Shown: one piece after another, positions 1-17,185 of the stretch
Layout: the number at the start of each line of letters is the position of its first letter
Position numbering within the stretch: the stretch's first letter is position 1
Source of the DNA: a virus
Lineage: Duplodnaviria > Caudoviricetes
DNA length: 25,703 nt
Reading direction: 5' to 3' (one strand)
IMG/VR virus record: IMGVR_UViG_3300009159_000282
Coordinates: 1-25,703 of that record
Made by a program: the position numbers and the translations under genes
The notes under the pieces: generated by a model
Told to the model about the DNA's origin: nothing
Seen by the model: the letters and a program-made list of their open reading frames with translations, nothing else
The model's database searches: none

Positions 1-6
1 GGCTCC

Positions 7-273
7 TTAGATAGAAAGTTCGTAAAAAGAAACAGTAGGGTCGATACTGATCAACTCTTCTGCACAACGGAAAAGGTAACGCTGTTTGTCACGCAGGGCT
101 TGCCCACGCACTTCACCGTCACAAGTCAAATTCTCTTGGCTCAGTTCGCTGTCTAAACCGTTAGCGATATCCTGACGATCTCGTGCGTTCAACAGGCTCA
201 ACGGCTTCTGATTAAAAATGGCACGCCAGCGATTCTTATGCTCTACATATTGTTCTAGTGTTGAAATATTCAT
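7..273 (-). CDS. hypothetical phage early protein (88 aa)
   Basis: ORF with AGGAG RBS directly downstream of the promoter at 302-330. Confidence 0.8.
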   Translation of the reverse strand: MNISTLEQYVEHKNRWRAIFNQKPLSLLNARDRQDIANGLDSELSQENLTCDGEVRGQALRDKQRYLFRCAEELISIDPTVSFYELSI

Positions 274-301
274 ATATGCTCCTGTGTGTGTTTAAGTATA
301 T

Positions 302-330
302 ATTATAGCGTCTTTGGTAAAACCTGTCAA
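302..330 (-). promoter_or_regulatory. sigma70-type early promoter P1 with GGT-N3-ACC box
   Basis: minus strand TTGACA-ggttttaccaaagacgc-TATAAT, 17-nt spacer; box at 316-324. Confidence 0.9.
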
Positions 331-333
331 CCA

Positions 334-531
334 CTAGGGTTTCTTCTGTTGTTTTACTGCCACAAAGGTCCGTCCCCGTTTATCAAAGCGGATTGGCTTA
401 GAGAACACCTTAGGCTCTACTATAGGCATACGGATGTAGGCCAGCATGTTCTCCTGCTTGTCGTCCAGGCAGTAGATATGGTTTGGAGTGTTGTGATCAC
501 CCCAGTCTGTGGTTTCTTGTAGCCACTTCAT
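334..531 (-). CDS. hypothetical phage protein (65 aa)
   Basis: ATGA overlap with the upstream gene 528-734; phage-like small ORF. Confidence 0.75.
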   Translation of the reverse strand: MKWLQETTDWGDHNTPNHIYCLDDKQENMLAYIRMPIVEPKVFSKPIRFDKRGRTFVAVKQQKKP

Positions 532-734
532 GATTGCACGAACACTTCTACGGTGTTGATGAACTTAACGAACTCGTCATACTTGACAAGGCTGTATGGA
601 CTGTGATTGTAAAACTCGTAGGGCATCTTGATCTGTTTGCCGTCTTTCCAGCACTCGTGGAACGTCTTAATGTTATCTTCTTCAACATCATCCCAGGTTC
701 TGTATTCAAACCCATTGTAACTGTAATGTTTCAT
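528..734 (-). CDS. hypothetical phage protein (68 aa)
   Basis: AAGGAG RBS; follows promoter P2. Confidence 0.8.
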   Translation of the reverse strand: MKHYSYNGFEYRTWDDVEEDNIKTFHECWKDGKQIKMPYEFYNHSPYSLVKYDEFVKFINTVEVFVQS

Positions 735-760
735 ATCTGCTCTCCTTAGTGTATGTGTAT

Positions 761-789
761 ATTATAGCACAGGTTTTACCATTTGTCAA
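761..789 (-). promoter_or_regulatory. sigma70-type early promoter P2 with GGTAAAACC box
   Basis: TTGACA-aatggtaaaacctgtgc-TATAAT, 17-nt spacer; box at 772-780. Confidence 0.9.
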
Positions 790-792
790 CCG

Positions 793-828
793 AAAAAAAC
801 GCCCGGGGAGCCAAGCTACAACCCGGGC
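793..828 (-). terminator. Rho-independent terminator
   Basis: GCCCGGG/CCCGGGC stem (822-828 with 801-807) followed on the minus strand by G and U7 (793-799). Confidence 0.7.
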
Positions 829-1221
829 CAAAACGCATAAGTTGGGCAGGGATTCTCCTAAGGGACACTACCCCCTCGCCCCTGCCCGGAGCAATCGTCA
901 TGGATGGTTTTGGGAGGTGGCACCATGATTCACCCGCATCGTTTCGTAGAGACTTTGTATAGCGAAGTACCTACGGCACCCTCTACAGGATCGCACTTGA
1001 CCCTATCCGCTGATTACTGTTGGGGATGTTTGATAGAAGAAACAGTTTTGAACCTGCCCTACCGTGCCGTCCACGGACTTGTCTATCAACCACATTACAG
1101 GCCAACTTGATCCGGCGTGCTTCGCCCTTTCGGGTCTGCTTTCGTGTAGTCCTAGTAGAGCCTAGCCGTCACTAGGAAATCCTCTACTAGGGTACCTACC
1201 GGAGTTGGTAACCCCTAATTC
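793..1221 (-). ncRNA. candidate structured ncRNA 1 (about 430 nt, family unknown)
   Basis: GC-rich intergenic stretch with many nested inverted repeats, a CCC-GAAA-GGG tetraloop hairpin on the minus strand and a terminal terminator. Confidence 0.55.
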
Positions 1222-1548
1222 TTAATCTAACCTACTTGATGCGTAAGCTGTCAAACCCAACGCTCTCAAGTATTCTGCCATTGCCATCGCACCAGCTTCT
1301 TTGATGTCGATGTTCTGCACGGGCAACTCACCTGGATTCCAAATGCTCAGGCACTTTGGTTTGTAATCCTTCTTAAAGCCTGCCTTAATCAACTCTTTAG
1401 CCTGCTTGCTGTTAGTCCGATCAACGAACACGTCTACCCAAGCAAAGCCACAAGCGAACTGATCCTTACGACCCATCTTATTGTACATCTCAATAGATGC
1501 TTGCTCTGCTAGCTCTTTGCCTTTAACAATTTGATCTGCTGTAATCAT
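1222..1548 (-). CDS. hypothetical phage protein (CGFAWV motif, 108 aa)
   Basis: AAGGAG RBS; follows promoter P3. Confidence 0.85.
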   Translation of the reverse strand: MITADQIVKGKELAEQASIEMYNKMGRKDQFACGFAWVDVFVDRTNSKQAKELIKAGFKKDYKPKCLSIWNPGELPVQNIDIKEAGAMAMAEYLRALGLTAYASSRLD

Positions 1549-1589
1549 CTCTGCTCCTTAGTGTGTTAAACAATTTAAACTACATACGT

Positions 1590-1618
1590 AGTATAGCATC
1601 GGTTTTACCTTTTGTCAA
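1590..1618 (-). promoter_or_regulatory. sigma70-type early promoter P3 with GGTAAAACC box
   Basis: TTGACA-aaaggtaaaaccgatgc-TATACT, 17-nt spacer; box at 1601-1609; the TGA in TTGACA is the stop codon of the upstream gene. Confidence 0.85.
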
Positions 1619-1842
1619 CCCCATGCTTTAAATAACCCTGCTAGCGTTATGGTTACTCCCATAACGTTAACAATCATCTGTGGCTTATTTGCCACACGTA
1701 CTGTCCAAGCAAAGTAAAAGAGCCCTCCCAGGCACCCTGCCACCAAGTTCCAGGGATAAGCACCAGGGAAGAAGCTCATGATTACGTACATGCTCATAAG
1801 GCAAGCTGTCCCTGCCCATTGTAGTACTTCATTCAACCTCAT
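1615..1842 (-). CDS. small membrane protein (about 3 hydrophobic helices)
   Basis: three hydrophobic segments; ATGA overlap with the GP88-family gene. Confidence 0.75.
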   Translation of the reverse strand: MRLNEVLQWAGTACLMSMYVIMSFFPGAYPWNLVAGCLGGLFYFAWTVRVANKPQMIVNVMGVTITLAGLFKAWG

Positions 1843-2561
1843 GCTACTTCCTTCAAACGGATTACGAATCCGCTGTAGTCCTTCTTAGCACGACCCTTAG
1901 CCTTTAACCCAGCAATCACACCCTTTGGGTCTAAGAAGCGCAAGTCTGTCTCGTCTGCATTAATTACGGGCAAACCCATGTGCTCTGCGGGCATTTCATC
2001 AAACACCGCCGCAATATTGTAGCCTTGTTCAATAGCCTTAGCCACGTCTGCATCATTGCCATCAGCCTTGCTGAACGTCAAGTGGTAGTTGGGAATGTCT
2101 GCAACCTTGCGACCCAAGATCTTAGTGTAGTCGTAGAACTGTACATTAGGGAACAATTCAAAGATGTTCTTAGTGCAAAACACCGGCACTTCGTACTTCT
2201 CCCAAGTCAAGTCACTAGTACCATTCAAACGAATCACGGGCGTCAATCCCTGCTTCTTAGCGAATGCAACGGCTTTCTGAATGTCGTAAGCAAGATCCAG
2301 CATAAACTGATCGCGATCAAAGAAGAACTGTACTGTCTTACGAATGCGAGCCTTTTGGATCATGTTGGTGTTCTCACCCTTCTTGAACATGCCCCCGCGT
2401 CCTGCTGTATTGAGGCAAGCTGCCTTGCAACCTGCTGTAGCCTTTGGGCAAGTGTTCTTACCGCTCAAGTCGCTAGGTGCAAGATGCAAGATAAAGCTGA
2501 GATAGCCTAGCTTCGTACCCTTTTGGATCTTTGGGTTAGCTGTGGAAAGTAATTTAAACAT
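1839..2561 (-). CDS. GP88-family phage protein (CX6CX3C motif)
   Basis: motifs TCPKATAGCKAACL, RLNGTSD, QFYDYTK, NYHLTFS, DLRFLD and GLKAKG, recognised as the phage Gene product 88 family; AGGAG RBS. Confidence 0.8.
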   Translation of the reverse strand: MFKLLSTANPKIQKGTKLGYLSFILHLAPSDLSGKNTCPKATAGCKAACLNTAGRGGMFKKGENTNMIQKARIRKTVQFFFDRDQFMLDLAYDIQKAVAFAKKQGLTPVIRLNGTSDLTWEKYEVPVFCTKNIFELFPNVQFYDYTKILGRKVADIPNYHLTFSKADGNDADVAKAIEQGYNIAAVFDEMPAEHMGLPVINADETDLRFLDPKGVIAGLKAKGRAKKDYSGFVIRLKEVA

Positions 2562-2588
2562 AGTTCGCTCCTGTTAGTGTATGTGACT

Positions 2589-2617
2589 ATTATAGCAAGG
2601 TTTTACCTATTTGTCAA
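2589..2617 (-). promoter_or_regulatory. sigma70-type early promoter P4 with GGTAAAACC box
   Basis: TTGACA-aataggtaaaaccttgc-TATAAT, 17-nt spacer; box at 2599-2607. Confidence 0.9.
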
Positions 2618-2636
2618 CCCCTTTGACAAAGACCCT

Positions 2637-2846
2637 TTAGCAGTCAGGGTCAAAGCTATGCCACTCTTCCTGCTCAGTGGGCTGTCCGTCATCTTCATAC
2701 GGCACCTCAACTTTAAGATTGCTCAGCAGAGCTTCTAGCACATCGTAAGCCATCTGCCAACGATCACCCTCAATGTTATAGATCTGATTGGTAGCATCCT
2801 CAAGGGTTGCAATGGCTTCTAAAACCTTGTAGTGTTGGTCTGTCAT
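2637..2846 (-). CDS. hypothetical acidic protein ending in DDGQP..EW..FDPDC
   Basis: GAGGAG RBS inside the end of the upstream gene; starts 1 nt after its stop. Confidence 0.75.
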   Translation of the reverse strand: MTDQHYKVLEAIATLEDATNQIYNIEGDRWQMAYDVLEALLSNLKVEVPYEDDGQPTEQEEWHSFDPDC

Positions 2847-2847
2847 A

Positions 2848-3186
2848 TCAATCTCCTCTAGTGTCAGTGTTGAGTGCGGGTTTGACTGTTCTGCGTATAC
2901 GAACTTCTTCTTTGTGCGCTTCTGCTTTACCGCGTATCACAGCATGAACAGTGATGCCTATTTCGTCTTTGCTGTTGAGCTTACGAAGCTCTATGCACAG
3001 GGCCCAGTCCTTGTTCTCAGTCTTAGCACGATAGAAATGCTTTGCGGCACGGCTACGAACGCTCTTAAGTACTGTGGACTCAGTCTTAGCAGTCACGCCT
3101 ATATAGTTGAGCCCGTTAACATTGAGCTCGTATATAATGTGATTGCGATCGACTCGCTTTTTACGGGTTGCTTTTGTTTCCATCAT
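2848..3186 (-). CDS. GIY-YIG-like nuclease domain protein (start revised to 3186)
   Basis: HIIY...YIGVT motif with downstream R, E and N residues in GIY-YIG order; the ORF-track start at 3201 lies inside promoter P5. Confidence 0.65.
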   Translation of the reverse strand: MMETKATRKKRVDRNHIIYELNVNGLNYIGVTAKTESTVLKSVRSRAAKHFYRAKTENKDWALCIELRKLNSKDEIGITVHAVIRGKAEAHKEEVRIRRTVKPALNTDTRGD

Positions 3187-3192
3187 AAGTGT

Positions 3193-3221
3193 ATTATACA
3201 AGGTTTTACCAACCCTGTCAA
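3193..3221 (-). promoter_or_regulatory. sigma70-type early promoter P5 with GGTAAAACC box
   Basis: TTGACA-gggttggtaaaaccttg-TATAAT, 17-nt spacer; box at 3202-3210; ATG begins 6 nt after TATAAT. Confidence 0.9.
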
Positions 3222-3249
3222 CCTTTTTTGGAAATTATTTTGTTGTATT

Positions 3250-3495
3250 TAGACAACACCGGCGGCACTCCGGCCCGGAGGCCCTGGGCTCAGTCATGTC
3301 TGACCCAGATCCGTTTGCCTCTCCTCCCACATGGGCGAGTTTGAAACCGCTGACAACGGTGGGCAATTCACAGCAGACACGCACGACCCTTCACAGGGTG
3401 ATTTGGGCTAGGCCCTCAACTTAGCTAGCGGACCCCATGGGACTTGTCAGAAATCCTTCCGGCGCTGTCCATCTAATTCATCTGCTGTTACGGTT
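3250..3495 (-). ncRNA. candidate structured ncRNA 2 (about 240 nt) directly 3' of the tRNA
   Basis: 11-bp long-range stem 3459-3469/3252-3262 with two G-U pairs on the minus strand; ACCCT-GTGA-AGGGT GNRA hairpin; several more stems. Confidence 0.55.
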
Positions 3496-3502
3496 ATACA
3501 AA

Positions 3503-3579
3503 TGGTGGGCCGTGAGTGATTCGAACACTCCACCAAAGGATTATGAGTCCTCTGCTCTAACCAAATGAGCTAACGGCCC
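3503..3579 (-). tRNA. tRNA-Ile2 (CAU anticodon, lysidine type)
   Basis: 77-nt cloverleaf GGGCCGTTAGCTCA...GAGGA-CTCATAA-TCCTT...GTTCGAATC...CGGCCCACCA with encoded CCA; C4-G69 and C5-G68 pairs (TilS determinants) favour Ile2 over Met. Confidence 0.9.
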
Positions 3580-3604
3580 TGATGTTACACTTAACAGTAT
3601 AACA

Positions 3605-8992: not shown

Positions 8993-9613
8993 ATGAAATT
9001 TAATTGTAGTGCCGGTGGCATAGAACGTACTGTTTCAATTGATCTACCCTTAACTCCCACAAAGATCGCTATATTCATAAGTGGTGGAATGGATAGTGCT
9101 ATACTCTATTACTTGTTATTGAAGGCCAATGCTGAACAAGGTAACCTGCATCAAATTATACCCTTTACTGTAAACAGGACTGAGGGTTCTCGTTATTTTA
9201 CTCGTCCTGTTATAGCTCACGTACACTCACAGTTCAATATACCTTATAAAGACCCCCACGAAGTTGGCGATCCTAGTTTACCCGGTCACCTACAAGTTAT
9301 GAGTGGCGCAACTAGCGTTATGCATATGGGATTTAATTCTATATACGGCGGCGTAATTACTCAACTGCCTGAACACATTATTGGTTACGATCCTGCTCCC
9401 ACAGGTGATACTGAAATAATCAAGTTACCCTTCAAAGATATAACCAAGGGCTACATTATTGATCTTATTGTGCGTCATAAACAAGAAGCCTTGTTCTATC
9501 TTACACACAGTTGTTCAATATTGGAAATAGGTAAATGTAACAGTTGCAATGGTTGTAACGAACGCAACTGGGGATTTGCACAATGTGGGTTAACTGACCC
9601 TGGTACCATCTAA
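8993..9613 (+). CDS. QueC-like PP-loop ATPase
   Basis: ISGGMDS PP-loop and C-terminal THSC...CNSCNGC.ER zinc motif. Confidence 0.75.
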   Translation: MKFNCSAGGIERTVSIDLPLTPTKIAIFISGGMDSAILYYLLLKANAEQGNLHQIIPFTVNRTEGSRYFTRPVIAHVHSQFNIPYKDPHEVGDPSLPGHLQVMSGATSVMHMGFNSIYGGVITQLPEHIIGYDPAPTGDTEIIKLPFKDITKGYIIDLIVRHKQEALFYLTHSCSILEIGKCNSCNGCNERNWGFAQCGLTDPGTI

Positions 9614-10687
9614 ATCACTACGTTCAATAAACATTTCTTTAGGCTTAGATATCTTTGACGATGTTCCACACATTGCTACACACATGTTTAATTGCTTGTT
9701 ATTCCAAAATTTCTCCCAGATGTTTTGATACATCTCACTATTAATAATATCCTTAATGGAGTAGTGATAAGCATTCTGTGATATAGCACCGCCTAGAGCT
9801 TCAATTAGGCTGTGATATTCATTTAACATTTGCAACCTAATCTGAGTCATACCAACAATAGTATCTACCGGTATATATGGTATTATGCCCAGATAACAGC
9901 AAGGAAATACTTGCCCGTATGCATCGATATATAGTTCATGTTGTTCTATTGCGCCACATTTGATAATACTTTCTTTTGCAATATCTCGAAAATTAGTTAT
10001 AGCGTTTCGATCGATAAATTTAATTTCGCTGTAGCCGCTTGGCTCTAGAAGTCGTGTAGTATCCCCATTTTTATCATAAACAGGAAAAGTTGGATCAAAG
10101 AAGAAACGGCCGCTGTCCTTCATCGAAAATGATTCAAATCCTAACTCATTGGCTAATTGCTTGACTTTGGCAACTTGATGCTCATTGTGTTTAAATCGAA
10201 TAAATGCCCACTCAGCAATGCCTCCAGCTTGTATAAAATCGTAAGCATTATCTATGATCTTATCAAAGTCAGTACCTACCCGATACAAACTGTGTGTATC
10301 TTCTAATCCGTCAATAGCAAAAACTACCCTATGATTTTTTGGCAGAGCTTTGGCTAACTGTTGCCACCAGTCTTTAGATCTAAGGCTTCCGTTGGTGTAG
10401 ATCCATACGTGTAAATTGGGATTAACAGACACAGAGTATTCAATCATTGCGATTAGATCATTGTTTAATAACGGATCACCAAAGTTACCGCAGAAGTAAT
10501 ACTTGTCAATTTGATTTAGTACATCCGCAGTCATAATACTTTTAAACTGTTCCAAAGACCAACTAGATAATTTTATCAATGGATTATCTAGCCCACCATG
10601 TATGTTTCGCTGACATTGGGGACAACTGGCTTGACAGTTATTGGTAATTTCAAGATGTATTTGTTTTAATTCGTTAAATTTAAACAT
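9590..10687 (-). CDS. radical SAM enzyme with C-terminal SPASM/twitch-like domain
   Basis: CQASCPQC; GNFGDP; YTNG; IDGL; C-terminal C...G.VFPCC...CVAMC. Confidence 0.9.
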   Translation of the reverse strand: MFKFNELKQIHLEITNNCQASCPQCQRNIHGGLDNPLIKLSSWSLEQFKSIMTADVLNQIDKYYFCGNFGDPLLNNDLIAMIEYSVSVNPNLHVWIYTNGSLRSKDWWQQLAKALPKNHRVVFAIDGLEDTHSLYRVGTDFDKIIDNAYDFIQAGGIAEWAFIRFKHNEHQVAKVKQLANELGFESFSMKDSGRFFFDPTFPVYDKNGDTTRLLEPSGYSEIKFIDRNAITNFRDIAKESIIKCGAIEQHELYIDAYGQVFPCCYLGIIPYIPVDTIVGMTQIRLQMLNEYHSLIEALGGAISQNAYHYSIKDIINSEMYQNIWEKFWNNKQLNMCVAMCGTSSKISKPKEMFIERSDLDGTRVS

Positions 10688-11310
10688 ACAAGCTCTTCAA
10701 TTGATTTATCTAATGCTACAGTAACAATCAGTCTTGGGCCAGGCGTAAAATGTACTGTATGAGCGCAATCTGTTTTGACAAATGCGCTGGGAGTATAGAC
10801 ATTTCTTGCAACTAACTCTGGAGCTCCTAAAAACTCATATCTACTTTGTGTGTCATGCCCTGGAACACTCTTGTTGGTATACTCACGACCATTAGGTGCT
10901 AGGAATTTAGTTTCTACTATCCTAGGATCGTCGTATTCAAGACTACCCCACCAAATTAAAGGATCATAGGGATTTCCCATGACCATGACATTTAGTCTTG
11001 ACCGTATTCTGTAGACTGCGCCTGTTTTAGGATCAGCCTTTGTATCAATATGTGGATCCGGGTTACCCAATGTACACATAAACACGTTTATACCACCAAA
11101 TTCAGTATCACACCCGTATTGATTTAAAAAGGCATTTAATTCTTGCCCTACTATACTATTACGCCATTCAGCTTGTGCTTCCGGAGTGTATTGAGTTAGG
11201 TCAGTATTATGTCCAATGTTGCCCGTTAATCGATCTTTATATCGATTTAAAATCCATTCTCGAGCATTGTTAGAAAAATTAAACGTTAGTGAATGATAAA
11301 ATTTCTTCAA
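10666..11310 (-). CDS. putative cupin / Fe(II)-2OG oxygenase-like protein (paralog B)
   Basis: PHID...AHTV...PRLIVTV (HxD...H plus distal R); TTG start; paralog of 11279-11962. Confidence 0.55.
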   Translation of the reverse strand: MKKFYHSLTFNFSNNAREWILNRYKDRLTGNIGHNTDLTQYTPEAQAEWRNSIVGQELNAFLNQYGCDTEFGGINVFMCTLGNPDPHIDTKADPKTGAVYRIRSRLNVMVMGNPYDPLIWWGSLEYDDPRIVETKFLAPNGREYTNKSVPGHDTQSRYEFLGAPELVARNVYTPSAFVKTDCAHTVHFTPGPRLIVTVALDKSIEELVCLNLTN

Positions 11311-11962
11311 TTGACTTATCCAATGGAACTGTTACAATTATTCGAGGAACGGGACTACAGTTTACTGTATGCACACAATCTGTTTTAACAAATGCAGTGG
11401 GCATTAATATATTTCCTGCTATACAGGTAGGAGTTCCTGCTAATTTTAATCTGTCTTCTTTAGTTTTTCCCGGAATATTTCTACAGGTAAACGGAAGATT
11501 TGTGCTTAAATCAAGATATTCAACGTCAGCCAAAGCAGGATGATCCGGGCCAAAGTCACCCCACCACCACATTTCATCTTCTGGATTTCCTTGTACCATG
11601 ATGTTTAATCTTGTCTTGATAACTTTTTCGTATTTGTATGTAGTACCTAATACTTTATTGATAAGACTTTTACATAGGATATCCATATGCGGATTTCCTG
11701 GATAGTATTCTTCTCTATTACATATGAATGTAGTAATACCTGCCATACTAGTATCACACCCGTAATTTTTTAAAAAATCATTAATTTCGATACCCACTAG
11801 ACTTGAATGCCATTCTTCTTGTGCTTGTTTTGAAAAGAATTCCGATGTATCGTCGTGATGATAAAATTGTTCTTTAAATTTATCTTTGTATCTATCTAAA
11901 ACCCATTGCTTAGCCTCAATGGATAGATCAAAGTCTAGCGAGTGATAGTATTTTGTAGTCAT
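11279..11962 (-). CDS. putative cupin / Fe(II)-2OG oxygenase-like protein (paralog A)
   Basis: PHMD...VHTV...PRIIVTV; shares YHSL.F, YGCDT, RLN.MV.GNP, AFVKTDC.HTV and LDKSIEE with its neighbour. Confidence 0.55.
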   Translation of the reverse strand: MTTKYYHSLDFDLSIEAKQWVLDRYKDKFKEQFYHHDDTSEFFSKQAQEEWHSSLVGIEINDFLKNYGCDTSMAGITTFICNREEYYPGNPHMDILCKSLINKVLGTTYKYEKVIKTRLNIMVQGNPEDEMWWWGDFGPDHPALADVEYLDLSTNLPFTCRNIPGKTKEDRLKLAGTPTCIAGNILMPTAFVKTDCVHTVNCSPVPRIIVTVPLDKSIEEILSFTNV

Positions 11963-11968
11963 TTTATT

Positions 11969-12592
11969 TTAATCCCCTATTGGCATTTTTTTCCAATCCT
12001 CTTCAGTGACAGATCGTTTATCCCAGGTCGCCCATGTACCTGGAACATGTTCATAATACAGATGATATTGCCAACATTTTTGTACATCATATGGACACGT
12101 TTGTATAAAGCCTTCCCCCTTCTTAAGACCGGGGATAGCTTTACAAAATGCAGAATGATATACATTCCACCATCCCACAGTTTCTTTTTTCTCACGAGAC
12201 TGTATCGTTATAAAGTAAGCATCAAACTGTTTAATTAAATTTAAAGGTTTAATTATCTGTGCGTCTACCATACGGAATATATCTACCATTCCTCTAAAAC
12301 TTCTTTGTCTATATTTAGGAAACAGGTATGCTCGATGCAGATGTATAGCGATATTAGATGGATATCGCCCATCATTGAATAACCCGGCCATTACAACCGG
12401 TTCGTGCGTAATTTTATCGTAAACTACTACATACCCTACGTGTTTTTCCAAAATTAAAAACTTTGGAGTATATATTTCTCTAAGCCAATTATCTTCGCTC
12501 AGACATAATTCTCGTACTTCCTCAAATTCTGCACAAGATTCATAAAATATCTTATGATAAAAATTATTAGGATTTAAAGATTGTAGGTTCAT
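11969..12592 (-). CDS. hypothetical protein, possibly GNAT acyltransferase fold
   Basis: LHRAYLFPKYRQ resembles GNAT motif A; TAAATA-N5-ATG start. Confidence 0.45.
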   Translation of the reverse strand: MNLQSLNPNNFYHKIFYESCAEFEEVRELCLSEDNWLREIYTPKFLILEKHVGYVVVYDKITHEPVVMAGLFNDGRYPSNIAIHLHRAYLFPKYRQRSFRGMVDIFRMVDAQIIKPLNLIKQFDAYFITIQSREKKETVGWWNVYHSAFCKAIPGLKKGEGFIQTCPYDVQKCWQYHLYYEHVPGTWATWDKRSVTEEDWKKMPIGD

Positions 12593-12597
12593 AAAAA

Positions 12598-12603
12598 TAT
12601 TTA
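12598..12603 (-). promoter_or_regulatory. T4-late-like promoter TAAATA, 5 nt before ATG
   Basis: TAAATA-TTTTT-ATG(12592). Confidence 0.7.
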
Positions 12604-12625
12604 TTAGGGGCCTAATCAGGCTCGA

Positions 12626-13909
12626 TTATTTTTGTTTTATCTTACTTGGATCAACGGCTCCAAAGTATACTTTATCAATGCGGCTTGTTTCTCCGCAGAT
12701 ACTAGAACAGTAGGCCATCTTACCATCCTTAACACTATCCTTAGACCAAGAATCGGCATAGACTCGATCTAAATGTCCATCATCTAAAATATCTTTTAAT
12801 GAATGTTTGTTGAGATCAAAATGATCCCATCCGTAGTCGTTCATATGCTTGTGTAACTGCATTGATCTGTAGTCTGTAAATGTTCCACTAATGTGTGTAC
12901 CTATGTAACAACAAGGCAATACTCTTCCAAAATTATCAACAAATATTTCTTTATCGTCTCTAAATACATTTGCTTTACATTTAATTGTACAAGCATCAAG
13001 TTTGCTAGTATCCTGTTTATTGATTATCTCATAGACTTTATTAAACTTTTCTTCATAGTTGTCATTAGACTTGTCTGCTCTTAGTGCTTTGTACTCTTCA
13101 AATTTAAATGGGTACCAACGAGCTGGGCGGGTTTCTCCTCCTACAGGATCTCTTAAGATTCTATTATCTGGATCTTTTGGAGCATGAATCATATAATCTA
13201 ATTCTCCATCCCTAGTTACCGCAGGTAAAGTGGTTAGATAACTACCGGTATCTACTCCTAATGCTTTTTTAGGAACAAACAATACAAACCCTAGATCGTC
13301 TGCCATTTTGCGAGCTTCTTCTATTTGATGTTCGTTATGTTCAAATATCAAGTATTCCCACACAGCGTTACCGCCAGCATCTATAAATGCTTTAGCATTG
13401 GCCATTAAGTTTTTCCATTTAACATTTCTGCGATATATATGATTAGTATCTTCTAATCCGTCAATGCTAAAAATAAGTCTCCAACAGGTTAAATCTCTAG
13501 GATTGCGTTTAGCGAATACAGCACCTAACTTAGCCCACCATTCGGGATTACGCATACCTCCGTTAGTATGCATCTGTAGAACAAAATCGCTTTTCTTTTT
13601 AGGCTTCCACCAAGCTGTTTTTTGATATTGAGTATGCTCTAGAATATATTCACAAATTTCTAATGTATTGCTGGCCATACAAGGATCACCTTGTGTTCCG
13701 CAAAACATTATCTTAACTAGCCCTGATAACAAATCTGGTGGAAAGTATTCTTTGAATTTTTCTAAAGATATCTCTCCTATTTCTAAGTCAGGTCTGACTA
13801 ACGGAGAGTTTCGATAGAAACGTACACACATGGGACATGCGGCATTACATGCATTGGTTAATTCAATATGCAGTTGACGTACTTCTTGCGTCTTCCAGAA
13901 CTCAGTCAT
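12626..13909 (-). CDS. radical SAM enzyme with C-terminal SPASM/twitch-like domain
   Basis: CNAACPMC; GTQGDP; HTNG; SIDGL; C-terminal C...G.VLPCC...CSSIC; paralog of 9590-10687. Confidence 0.9.
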   Translation of the reverse strand: MTEFWKTQEVRQLHIELTNACNAACPMCVRFYRNSPLVRPDLEIGEISLEKFKEYFPPDLLSGLVKIMFCGTQGDPCMASNTLEICEYILEHTQYQKTAWWKPKKKSDFVLQMHTNGGMRNPEWWAKLGAVFAKRNPRDLTCWRLIFSIDGLEDTNHIYRRNVKWKNLMANAKAFIDAGGNAVWEYLIFEHNEHQIEEARKMADDLGFVLFVPKKALGVDTGSYLTTLPAVTRDGELDYMIHAPKDPDNRILRDPVGGETRPARWYPFKFEEYKALRADKSNDNYEEKFNKVYEIINKQDTSKLDACTIKCKANVFRDDKEIFVDNFGRVLPCCYIGTHISGTFTDYRSMQLHKHMNDYGWDHFDLNKHSLKDILDDGHLDRVYADSWSKDSVKDGKMAYCSSICGETSRIDKVYFGAVDPSKIKQK

Positions 13910-15071
13910 GTGCTAGCCCTATAATTTTTGCAAATTCCGGAAACACTTCTGCGTAATCTTGTTTTCGATAATCGTCGTGTATTTTAATTTCTTCTAGAAA
14001 CGTATCCCACATAGCCGGATCAGGTGTGCCGTTCTCAATGAATCCAATAATGCCCGGTAATTGTGTCCATACATGTCTATAGGACTTTGGTATTGAATTA
14101 AGTCTATCAAGAACGATCTTTTTAACATCTTCTGGCATAATGCTAATATTGAAATGTCTTGGGCCGTGGACTAGATTTAGAAAACTTCCAAAGTCTGGTT
14201 ATGCCCTATAGTACTCTTCTATAATCTCTGGAAGATAATAAACATTTAAATTACTCAAAGTAATAAACCAACCTATTGTTAAATTGCCTTCTTGTGTTCT
14301 AGACTTGGCCATATTAGCCTGAACAACTTCCCAGTCTGCTAGATAACGCATGTATTCAAATTGTTTACCAACTCCATCTATGCTAAAATGTACAGATATT
14401 CTTTTAAAATGTTTCCACACTTCAACCTGTTTAGGCCATAAAGTACCATTAGTAGCGTAGTGTACTTCTATATCTTTGGCATATCCTTTTTCTACAGCAA
14501 GTTCTAATATACTCCACATCTTCTTGCTCATAAAAGGTTCCCCTCCATAAAACTCTAAATGTTTTATAGTATGTAGATGGCTTTCTAGATCTGGCCAAAA
14601 ATTACTTTCTTCTTCAAAACTTTTATAAAACTTTTTGATATGGCTTCGGTAATCTTTAATAGCATAGATTTTATGATATTGTGTATCATATCCCTCGTCA
14701 ACCCATTGACTGCTTGAATGGGGATTACATGTTCTACAACGGATATTACATTGATTACCTAAACTGGCTTCAAAATAAACCAGCCCCTGTTGTTGATTAT
14801 ATCGCTCGTTATCTCTAAGTCGCTTGCTTTTTCCGCCCCCGTCTTCTTCTTCCCAACAACGAATACAACCTGTATTACGAACACCAGTCTCACAGTCTTT
14901 TTTTAGTTGTTGTAATTCGGGATGATTAAGATGTTCTTCTATAGTTTTTTCGCCCAGTATGTATTTGCTATCAGGATCTTGACTAACATACATACAACAC
15001 GGACGAGTAGTTCCGTCATTACTTGCACTTAGGCTATGGAATGCATTTATGCACCAAGTATTACTTTTCAT
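13902..15071 (-). pseudogene. radical SAM enzyme with N-terminal twitch-like domain, interrupted by one in-frame TAA (14199-14201)
   Basis: WC...RPCC...CIRC then CNIRCRTC and YGGEP; the frame continues EEYYRA*PDFGSFLNLVHGPRHFNISIMPEDV into ORF 13902-14138. Confidence 0.75.
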
Positions 15072-15072
15072 A

Positions 15073-15807
15073 TTATATTCCTTCTCGAATCATAGTCCAT
15101 TGATTTCTTTTTTCATTTAGATATTTGTAATCAGTTATTTTATCAAAATCCATATTATTTTTAAACCTTAAACAATAGTTGTCCATGTTAACTAGCTCAG
15201 ATGATATAACTTCAACTCCGCAGTCTGTAATAATCTTATACCAAATATTTTCTATATTAGCATCTTTAATATCTAGAAAACGAAGTGTATGCCATCTTTC
15301 TTTTAGTGTACGTACTCCTAGTCTATTAAAATACATAAAATGGTTGTGTAGCATATTGTTATCCGCTACCCAACCAAATGCTTTGGGAGACTCTTGCGGA
15401 ACAGATTTGGCTATTTGTTTAAAGTCTAATGAAGTTTTTTTATTAAAAACTATTTCCGGAGTTAAAAAGAATACTACATCATTTTCTTTCAAATGATTCA
15501 ACATCAAAAATAACTGTTGATATAAAAAAAATCTGCTTTTGCTAACATCAATTAAATTAATATACTTCTTCACATCAACTACTGTACAACTAGTTGGATT
15601 AATTGTTTGTTTAAAAAAATCTAAAGATTCATTAAAACTTAAATTATTGATGCTGTGTTTTGAACCTATATTGGTGTTCCATATATCGAACACTGAATCA
15701 ACGAATGCGGCATCAATTAACTCTGCTCCCTCTATATGCATTTTATGATACTGAGCACACTCAACAAATCTCAATTGACCAGCATATAACACATTAAAAT
15801 TTGTCAT
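15073..15807 (-). CDS. hypothetical protein, possibly degenerate glycosyltransferase-like
   Basis: N-terminal VLYAGQLR strand-loop motif; in an operon with radical SAM genes; no clear DXD. Confidence 0.45.
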   Translation of the reverse strand: MTNFNVLYAGQLRFVECAQYHKMHIEGAELIDAAFVDSVFDIWNTNIGSKHSINNLSFNESLDFFKQTINPTSCTVVDVKKYINLIDVSKSRFFLYQQLFLMLNHLKENDVVFFLTPEIVFNKKTSLDFKQIAKSVPQESPKAFGWVADNNMLHNHFMYFNRLGVRTLKERWHTLRFLDIKDANIENIWYKIITDCGVEVISSELVNMDNYCLRFKNNMDFDKITDYKYLNEKRNQWTMIREGI

Positions 15808-15826
15808 AGTTATGTATCAAATCTTT

Positions 15827-17185
15827 TTATTTTCCAGATTCGTATGTTTCCTTGCACAGTTGATAAAAGTCAGTGTATTCTGGGAATAGTTCTAACAAAT
15901 TAGTTCCTAATCGTTTATCATTTTCTGTAAAGAATACATAAAAGTCTCTACGACCCCTACGGATCTTATCTTGATCAACTGGATTGGTTTTCATATATTC
16001 GTGGACACGCCTAAACTTAACGATCTCTGATAATTCAAACCATTCAGCATTATCTTCCATAAATTTAAGTGTGTCATCCATATAGCTCATAAACTCTGGA
16101 GGAAGAATGTTAATCATCCAGTGCGGAGGATCTTTCAAATAAGGTATATCTAAATGTATTAGATGCGATCCGTATTGTTTGCGCCATTCAATTACTTTTT
16201 CTAATAATTTTTTATAGTTTGTCACACACAGAACATTAAACGTACACATAAAATTAACACGTTTGCCTAGCTTAACAAACTCTAGCATGTTTCTTTCCCA
16301 ATGAGCACAGTTTAATCCAGTACGCATGTACTCGGCTTGAGGACCCCAACTATCAATTGAAGTAAAAATATTGAGAGTTTTGATCTTTTTGTCTTTTAAC
16401 AATTTTTTAGCCTGTTCTATAAATCTATCAACTCTATTAAAACTAACTCCAAGATTGCTATTGATACTAATTTCTAAGTCTGGAGCAGGCTCTCGATCTA
16501 ACAGCTCAAAGAAATCCATAGCACCTTTATTCATTAATGGTTCACCTCCTGTAATGCGAAGCGTATGTAGGTCTTTGCGTAGACTTGGCCACCATTTCCA
16601 AAACGCATCGATATAGGGATTGTCATCTTTAGGACCATAGTATGTTCCGTGATCTAGGAAGCCTATACTATATTGCGGATGTGTAATATCGTAGTCACCG
16701 TATTTCTTTACTTCTTCCATCCACATGGTACTAGCTTGCGGCCCACAGTATCCGCAACGGAAATTACAGTTGTTACCAAAGCTAACTTCCAAGTACTTGG
16801 GATTAATATCAGCGTCCCAAGGTAGTTGGGCTAGTTTCTCAATAGCTTGTTCTGCCCAAGGATTGCCGCCACTATGCAATACTCTATCGCTAGAGTGATC
16901 TCCTGGTAAATCTTCAATGTTCCAGCAGTAATAACATTCTTTAGGCCGCTCACCTTCTAACATGGCCTTGCGTTGTTCTTTCTTCCACTTGGTATTGTGT
17001 AATGCCGCAGGGTTTTCTGCGATTTCGTCCAATTGGATATGATGTGGTTTAGGGTGATAACAACTGTGATTGTCGCCTGTATGTAGATACAAAGTTTGGT
17101 GTAACCATTTCATAGCACAAAATCCAGGACCTACCGAATTAAGTCGATCTTTTACATTTTTAAAAAATTGAAGTTGTTGTTCCAT
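15827..17185 (-). CDS. radical SAM enzyme with N-terminal twitch-like domain
   Basis: FC...HSCYH...ECYYCW then CNFRCGYC, TGGEP, NSNL and TSIDS. Confidence 0.9.
   Translation of the reverse strand: MEQQLQFFKNVKDRLNSVGPGFCAMKWLHQTLYLHTGDNHSCYHPKPHHIQLDEIAENPAALHNTKWKKEQRKAMLEGERPKECYYCWNIEDLPGDHSSDRVLHSGGNPWAEQAIEKLAQLPWDADINPKYLEVSFGNNCNFRCGYCGPQASTMWMEEVKKYGDYDITHPQYSIGFLDHGTYYGPKDDNPYIDAFWKWWPSLRKDLHTLRITGGEPLMNKGAMDFFELLDREPAPDLEISINSNLGVSFNRVDRFIEQAKKLLKDKKIKTLNIFTSIDSWGPQAEYMRTGLNCAHWERNMLEFVKLGKRVNFMCTFNVLCVTNYKKLLEKVIEWRKQYGSHLIHLDIPYLKDPPHWMINILPPEFMSYMDDTLKFMEDNAEWFELSEIVKFRRVHEYMKTNPVDQDKIRRGRRDFYVFFTENDKRLGTNLLELFPEYTDFYQLCKETYESGK

Follow-up and report, generated by a model that had tools for sequence, protein, structure and literature searches.

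Introduction

GOLLD and ROOL are phage-encoded structured RNAs that are found near tRNA islands and are stabilized by kissing loops (PMC12286853, in part). RNAC and RNAD of phage T4 (species 1 and 2; NC_000866) are small stable RNAs from the phage tRNA cluster and are classed as late RNAs (PMC9697503, in part). What job any of these tRNA-adjacent phage RNAs performs is an open question. The prohead RNA (pRNA) of phi29, a phage RNA of ~170 nt, uses two G-C pairs to connect two different loops, as set out in a section of PMC2241910. SL-C and SL-D of murine leukemia virus (MLV) carry two conserved GACG loops that make heterologous loop-loop contacts (PMC5874298, in part), and a title cited in that paper describes two G-C pairs for these loops. 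HDV-like and theta ribozymes have a nested pseudoknot strand order, sometimes lie directly 3' of a tRNA, and need a catalytic C whose change to U inactivates them (PMC10879173, in part).

We analyzed a stretch of 25,703 nt from a tailed phage, here called the window, in which positions 793-1221 of the minus strand had been proposed in an initial annotation to encode a single structured noncoding RNA of about 430 nt. Comparison with homologous loci indicates that this stretch is instead three separate RNAs in tandem, named A, B, and C, followed by a terminator, and that all three are real, previously undescribed structured RNAs that have no Rfam family. Like GOLLD and ROOL, A is found near tRNA islands and is predicted to be stabilized by a kissing contact, but it is far smaller (128-255 nt from GG to CC), has no Rfam match, and forms an oligomer only as a predicted possibility. 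It recalls RNAC and RNAD as a small and probably stable RNA in a phage tRNA cluster, although many copies of A stand behind host-type promoters, whereas the T4 RNAs are late. With the phi29 RNA it shares the predicted joining of two different loops by two pairs; it differs in having no Rfam match and no link to packaging in the loci examined, and phi29 is a small, unrelated phage. The likeness to MLV is an analogy of motif only, since A has one tetraloop and one five-base loop on distant arms, perhaps in contact within one molecule, and belongs to a DNA phage. RNA B resembles the HDV-like and theta ribozymes in strand order and occasional position after a tRNA but does not conserve the catalytic C and has a variable inner stem and loop; beyond these ribozymes, it has an extra conserved hairpin and a second, H-type pseudoknot.

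The literature yielded no description of A, B, or C, with the proviso that a partly covered catalogue (PMC10690425) could include them; six motifs of the three RNAs were absent from the part of its supplements that was searched. The part of PMC7162821 that was covered mentions tRNAs and tmRNAs only. The three families would be additions to Rfam.

Results and Discussion

Genomic setting of the gene-free stretch

The source record is a linear virus of 25.7 kb with an estimated completeness of 7%, and the sequencing runs that hold the window sequence are freshwater, lake, or river metagenomes wherever the habitat is named. Among relatives, the three with a completeness of at least 90% are 353-367 kb long. 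The left 3.3 kb of the window is an early-type region of small genes, mostly of unknown function, with minus-strand sigma-70 promoters at 3221, 2617, 1618, 789, and 330. The third of these (1590-1618, minus strand; P3 of the initial annotation) matches 11 of 12 consensus positions and stands ahead of a 108-aa gene of unknown function (1222-1548, minus strand), which was assigned to phrog_22149 by a PHROG match. Co-transcription of the stretch from this promoter, as had been suggested, is probably right, judging from the promoter sequence. The next sigma-70 promoter (761-789, minus strand; 12/12 consensus) opens a separate early unit. Ahead of it, the predicted terminator was found as an intrinsic terminator at 793-828 (minus strand), made of a 7-bp GC hairpin (828-801, folding z -2.45) and a U run (799-793), with a terminator-like call at 816-801.

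Much of the initial description of the stretch held. It is GC-rich (53% GC vs 39% for the window and 47% for positions 1-3600), on the minus strand every pair of the eight listed stems can form (10/10, 5/5, 6/6, 4/4, 8/8, 6/6, 6/6, and 8/8), and the CCC-GAAA-GGG hairpin is present as CCCGAAAGGG at 1134-1125 on the same strand. No credible ORF was seen, and indeed the four plus-strand ORFs that run over the region have no PHROG match. A coding signal on the plus-strand ORF, which had been raised as the alternative to an RNA, is missing, since homologues differ by indels of any length (12-89 nt in the P5 arm of RNA A). Evidence for the minus strand comes from the promoters, from homologues that share the orientation of tRNAs, and from retained G-U pairs such as the U-G closing helix P3 in 66/66 RNA A sequences.

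Comparison of folding energy with shuffled sequences gave a divided result. The whole minus strand is unremarkable (z -0.95, vs -2.63 for the plus strand), and among the modules A reaches -2.33, B +0.55, and C -1.78. Folding energy alone is therefore unconvincing, and the case for structure rests on covariation.

The stretch matched no Rfam family, in keeping with the earlier failure to assign it to one. At E<=1 the window returned tRNA only, and Rfam 15 at E<=10 on positions 780-1230 returned four weak matches, the best at 14.8 bits against a cut-off of 49.5 and three of them at the terminator end. In 20 homologous loci, Rfam models marked nothing on A, B, or C and detected the GOLLD and tRNAs nearby. 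RNase P, group I and II introns, tmRNA, SRP Alu, c-di-GMP-I, preQ1, twister, hatchet, and pistol had no Rfam support.

Three RNAs that occur separately

Where the initial annotation did not hold was in the unity of the RNA: a structured, noncoding, minus-strand product without an Rfam family is upheld, but as a tandem of three RNAs plus a terminator. None of the listed stems crosses from one module into another, and each module is found alone elsewhere. When the stretch was compared by blastn with the first 155 loci, the matches split into three blocks. Relatives of the 108-aa gene were present in 35 loci, where the element directly behind is A in one (a near-identical copy), B in one, C in one, and none of the three in 32. 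For A, 122 distinct copies had enough flanking sequence to be counted, with 30 of 152 left out for short flanks; a tRNA lies within 300 nt in 74 of them, and B stands behind A in 7 and is missing behind the other 115. The copy in the window has no tRNA within 300 nt. The 22 members of B lie directly after A in 9 cases, before C in 5, and directly after a tRNA in 2. The full A-B-C order recurs in locus L283, with a distant A.

A single RNA of ~430 nt folded from all three parts would draw support from the A-B-C order here and in L283 and from the nine B members directly behind A. Each part, however, occurs without the others, copies of A and B are for the most part not adjacent, no helix connects the parts, and B is missing from all three near-complete genomes that hold A as well as from behind those 115 copies of A. 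This reading is hardly tenable and is largely refuted by the comparison. The individual folds of the three RNAs, and their independence, are by the same comparative evidence close to certain, and the A-B-C tandem is best described as a recurring cassette that is not an obligate unit. On this evidence, jumbo phages move structured RNAs in the manner of ordinary genes, between tRNA arrays and early promoter cassettes.

Downstream of A, the loci examined have tRNAs, promoters, other RNAs, or unrelated ORFs, and B and C usually close a unit ahead of a new promoter. A fixed place upstream of a conserved class of gene, as expected of a cis-acting riboswitch or leader, was not found in these loci.

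Further recurring modules adjoin the three RNAs. An unannotated hairpin module lies just 3' of B in L146, L150, L277, and L278, and a structured-looking module of ~100 nt lies just 5' of A in L008, L119, L520, L535, L548, L565, and L569. A third, small module adjoins B on its 5' side (L280 and L288) or A on its 3' side (L530, L535, and L548).

Fold, conservation, and distribution of RNA A

RNA A (~194 nt; 1022-1215, minus strand) was delimited by pattern scans, model R2, and covariation. A closing helix P1 (1215-1212/1025-1022) leads into a three-way junction of P1, P2, and P6; P2 and P3 continue to a second junction that bears P4 (1195-1146) and the variable P5 (1139-1119), and the P6-P7-P8 domain occupies 1093-1026, all on the minus strand. 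The number of distinct members from the pattern scans and R2 was 149-152, according to the script used, with matches left out where the P3 pairing rule failed or the sequence was cut short.

Covariation among homologues, which the initial annotation had put forward as a check, was found. In an alignment of 39 sequences, 95.7% of cells pair and 34/53 pairs change on both sides. In one of 66 sequences (mean identity 55%), which was fitted to the model and hence leans towards it, 91.0% of cells pair and 41/53 pairs change on both sides. Slid alignments are ~40% paired, and 0/500 shuffles reach the observed scores. A mutual-information scan of the alignment returned helix pairs and lineage signal only, with no further tertiary pair, and did not rank the L4-L7 pair described below. 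Positions that are at least 97% conserved cluster at the two junctions, GGUUAC/GUAAUG and UAGG/CAYGAA. An antisense role is made less likely by the lack of any long conserved single strand.

The closing helix has at least 10 bp in 97/140 members. That of the window is short, with 4 bp, and the script gives 6 for the near-identical L121. Where a tRNA precedes A, the gap is 14-15 nt in 22/24 cases. A promoter lies just upstream of 11 copies by script and of 13 more by reading of the printed upstream sequence. The placement, the promoters, and the long closing helix of A would fit a processed RNA that acts in trans.

Of 35 records scanned with R2, 27 gave a single match each, among them all three with a completeness of at least 90%. 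Twenty of the 35 had been chosen because they contain A; among the remaining 15, A is present in 7, and the 8 that lack it are at most 75% complete. Tandem duplicates of A were seen in L325 and L606.

All four RNA libraries examined have low-depth contigs over A or its relatives, at a depth of 2-5 that resembles neighboring genes, with strand and level not readable. One contig covers 1022-1216 with unlike flanks, which coincides with the boundaries of A drawn from comparison. DNA carry-over could account for contigs of this kind. The same libraries have little over B or C, and their contigs cannot rank expression.

Searches elsewhere found no isolated phage that carries A. Neither the window stretch nor a distant member of A had a blastn match among 50,697 phage records. 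R2 had no match in XacN1, Xoo-sp13, RAS14, Tunturi_5, GAP32, Atu_ph07, PA5oct, or T4, in a scan that included no positive control and whose first look scored 0 candidates, and with filters off it scored nothing above -0.3 bits at rnaC or rnaD in positions 69500-73500 of NC_000866, a comparison made for A only. A pattern scan of GTDB gave two chance matches, neither with the fold of A around it; the scan used a single exact pattern from one subfamily, so absence from bacteria is weakly supported.

The P8 hairpin (1042-1057, minus strand) has a T-loop-like GUUCAAAA loop, which the initial annotation singled out. In the subfamily of the window it stands beside a loop that bears GG, and together with the nearness of 74/122 copies to tRNA genes this could suggest that A mimics a tRNA elbow or a Y RNA and acts as a decoy for tRNA-cutting defense enzymes. 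The hairpin, however, belongs to one subfamily, is absent from distant members, and is found in only 74/127 distinct cores, so that it does not define the RNA. A CCA closes A in 9/140. With neither feature conserved, tRNA mimicry is not the basis of the family, and no tRNA or tmRNA call was made on A. Y RNAs have the Ro60/TROVE protein as their partner. A TROVE/Ro60 gene was found in 0/35 records, three of them near-complete, with controls detected, and a host Ro60 could still serve. On balance, mimicry of this kind is very improbable.

tRNA-Asp and tRNA-Glu are the commonest tRNA neighbors of A. A T-box-like reading, in which GAC and GAA of A would act as codons for these neighbors, was dropped because L4 is GCCG in many copies that have the same neighbors; shared gene order explains the pattern.

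A predicted contact between two loops of RNA A

L4, the tetraloop at the tip of P4 (GACG; 1167-1170, minus strand), and L7, the loop on P7 (GACGG; 1067-1071, minus strand), are predicted to kiss through two C-G pairs, with CG 1168-1167 of L4 pairing with CG 1069-1068 of L7. From the pattern of loop variants, a physical contact is very probable. Among 149 copies of A, 138 have GNCG with GACGN (one of these, L571, has CUCGCUA as its loop and entered the count by a GACG located in a stem), 3 have GGCA with GAUGC, 8 have neither, and none has one loop alone, so that, as in the MLV type of contact, the CG bases of the two loops can pair and appear to change together. About half of the 149 came from a pattern that included L7; the 74 chosen by the 5' core alone split into 64, 3, and 7. 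In control windows, GACG was present in 20/141.

The three copies with GGCA and GAUGC (L598, L599, and L602) turn one C-G pair into U-A. This compensation is one evolutionary event (a single change on a rough tree whose bootstrap is not settled). The eight copies that have lost both loops include related sequences, and since the A sequences are related, a Fisher value for the association of the loops overstates the case. A third kissing pair is not required, with A-G the commonest combination at that place. P4 measures 45-56 nt in 148/149 copies, in contrast to 12-89 nt for P5, and the GACG of L7 is mostly 19-24 nt after GUAAUG. The kiss and the entire P7 domain are lacking in some members (L544 and L568) and are thus dispensable. 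In L606, one of the tandem copies of A keeps both kissing loops and its sister is changed in both.

These observations also bear on whether A works as a protein-free oligomer, in which L4 of one molecule would kiss L7 of the next and the resulting dimers or rings would be the working unit, possibly on the portal, the ribosome, or tRNAs. The loop pairing is heterologous, with a CA/UG variant that is not self-complementary, and the lengths of the arms are fixed. The tRNA-array setting is shared with GOLLD, which adjoins A in L169 and L181, the covarying contacts of ROOL proved to be intermolecular (PMC12286853, in part), and the phi29 pRNA likewise joins via two G-C pairs (PMC2241910, in part). 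Yet sequence comparison fits intra- and intermolecular pairing equally, both loops are missing in 8/149 members, and the loci examined have no link to portal or terminase genes. We regard an oligomer as unlikely, though worth keeping in view; if A does form a ring, it would parallel the GOLLD and ROOL cages, or phi29 pRNA, in minimal form.

The Rfam GOLLD model marks a separate neighbor of A and not A itself. In L169 (3372-3837) and L181 (3328-3792), the distance from A to the downstream GOLLD match is ~800 nt, and both GOLLD matches contain a tRNA match.

RNA B

RNA B (~114 nt; 898-1011, minus strand) was defined by pattern hits and covariation. It opens with a pseudoknot (1011-1006/966-961) and a conserved AAGUGC hairpin (1004-987), followed by a stem (986-981/951-946) and an H-type pseudoknot (934-931/919-916 with 927-923/903-899), all on the minus strand. 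Seven of 29 pattern matches were dropped for missing flanking stems, which left 22 members. In 14 aligned sequences, 18/35 pairs change on both sides. The 5' pseudoknot has 5.3 Watson-Crick pairs with its own partner vs 3.5 with swapped partners (0/1000), S1 is fully paired in 21/22 members, and S2 has at least 4/5 pairs in 22/22. By this comparison, B carries two covarying pseudoknots. It was found in 7/35 records and in 0/3 near-complete genomes, all of which hold A, and is thus accessory.

The 5' half of B follows the HDV strand order, with the outer pseudoknot supported. HDV-like ribozymes also have a small inner pairing, P1.1, for which B has no visible conserved partner. The strand equivalent to J4/2 reads, for example, AUACAAAGU, UAAUAAAGA, or GAAAAACU, and across the 22 members C, U, G, or A occupies the place of the catalytic C.

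The initial annotation listed a ribozyme among possible roles, and A, B, or both could be new-class ribozymes that free themselves or neighboring tRNA precursors from the transcript. The invariant junction bases of A, the two pseudoknots of B with their HDV-like order, and the position of B directly after a tRNA in 2/22 members and after A in 9/22 are consistent with this. The lack of a conserved C in B counts against it, as does the lack of any match to an Rfam ribozyme. The distance of 14-15 nt between A and an upstream tRNA, on a long stalk, suggests processing by the host, and an RNA-library contig from a relative joins an A-type 3' end to B, which is weak evidence against complete cutting at that point. 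A ribozyme role appears quite unlikely.

Compact multi-junction cores with invariant unpaired bases, together with early or tRNA-linked expression, would also suit a riboswitch-like aptamer, with A or B soaking up a nucleotide signal or metabolite in trans. As neither RNA matches an Rfam aptamer, has an expression platform or a conserved downstream gene, or points to a predicted ligand, we consider an aptamer improbable.

RNA C

RNA C (~51 nt; 844-894, minus strand), found by hairpin scans, consists of a single-stranded UUGCUCC leader (894-888) and a stem (887-880/851-844) that encloses an inner hairpin with a GUAGUG loop (871-866), all on the minus strand. The GCUCC of the leader is the complement of GGAGC, the ribosome-binding tag of early genes. 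When the hairpin core alone was used for scanning, GCUCC lay within 40 nt upstream of 48/99 distinct matches, vs ~3% by chance. These loci are rich in promoters (1.44 vs 0.16 per kb), and at promoter-proximal GGAG sites in these loci the next base is C in 158/195. Three of the five promoter-proximal genes in the window have GGAGC and a fourth has GAGC. Predicted duplexes between leader and tag reach -11.5 kcal/mol.

Covariation between seed and tag was not found in these loci: those with UCGCUCC have 13 GGAGCG vs 86 GGAGCA, and those with UUGCUCC have 15 vs 45. The sixth base of the tag does not follow the base that precedes GCUCC, so only five bases match. That C acts as a translational brake on early genes is a possibility raised by this complementarity, which we hold with more doubt than confidence.

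The long form of C, as in the window, mostly follows the 108-aa gene family (8 loci including the window), and 21 loci, L397 for example, have a short form behind an 89-aa gene family, with the GCUCC leader near the GUAGUG hairpin. The 89-aa family looks helix-turn-helix by eye. L414 and L288 have the C hairpin twice in tandem. GCUCC is also present inside the terminator hairpin at 828-801, where the loop meets the stem, and a similar hairpin with a UUCGCUCC leader is found in L421, a near-identical contig, past the left end of the window.

Proposed roles of the three RNAs

The reading we put forward is that the three RNAs are shuffled between loci and that A is a stable processed RNA, held by the GACG kiss, which, acting in trans, binds protein as a decoy or scaffold in the course of infection; taken as a whole, it has somewhat less than an even chance of being correct. 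Host RNA polymerase would start at the 1618-1590 promoter and make one transcript that spans the 108-aa gene and all three RNAs and ends at the terminator. Host nucleases could then trim A out, which the closing stalk of 10-29 bp in most homologues would permit. The fixed-length P4 arm and the P6-P7 arm would be locked tip to tip by two C-G pairs, either within one molecule or head to tail between molecules, and the two invariant junctions would form the working surface to which a host or phage protein binds. B would likely belong to the same class as A, as another stable cargo RNA. For C, the likely role is that of a small RNA of the 3' UTR that would damp translation of early genes by pairing of its GCUCC leader with their GGAGC tag.

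A decoy or scaffold is our best guess for A. Neither a partner protein nor a conserved neighbor gene was found in the loci examined, and this step is accordingly without direct support. A is small, has ~150 natural variants that include minimal ones, and offers a specific predicted tertiary contact with a natural compensatory pair, all of which make it directly testable.

A bolder version is also conceivable. A may be near-core in a large clade of ~350-kb freshwater phages and form a small RNA-only ring, closed by GACG kisses of L4 with L7 running head to tail, that neutralizes an RNA-sensing or tRNA-cutting defense of the host, with B a new double-pseudoknot class that is catalytic or binds a ligand, and C a brake on a class of early genes. 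We consider this combination speculative and a good deal less probable than the decoy or scaffold reading. If it were true, RNA effectors would be a toolkit that these phages shuffle and use like gene cassettes.

Other features of the window

A second gene-free, GC-rich stretch lies at 3230-3502 (minus strand), directly 3' of a tRNA-Met (3579-3503). The sole non-identical homologue found for it is a weak one (L521/L595; nhmmer E 3.5e-5). Further along the window, four radical-SAM genes are clustered at 9590-17185 (minus strand), and a plus-strand ORF beside them (8993-9613) has a weak QueC-like match. A GP88-family gene (PF17338) is located at 1839-2561 (minus strand), and its best matches among isolated phages, ~50% identical, are in jumbo phages of Xanthomonas and Stenotrophomonas.
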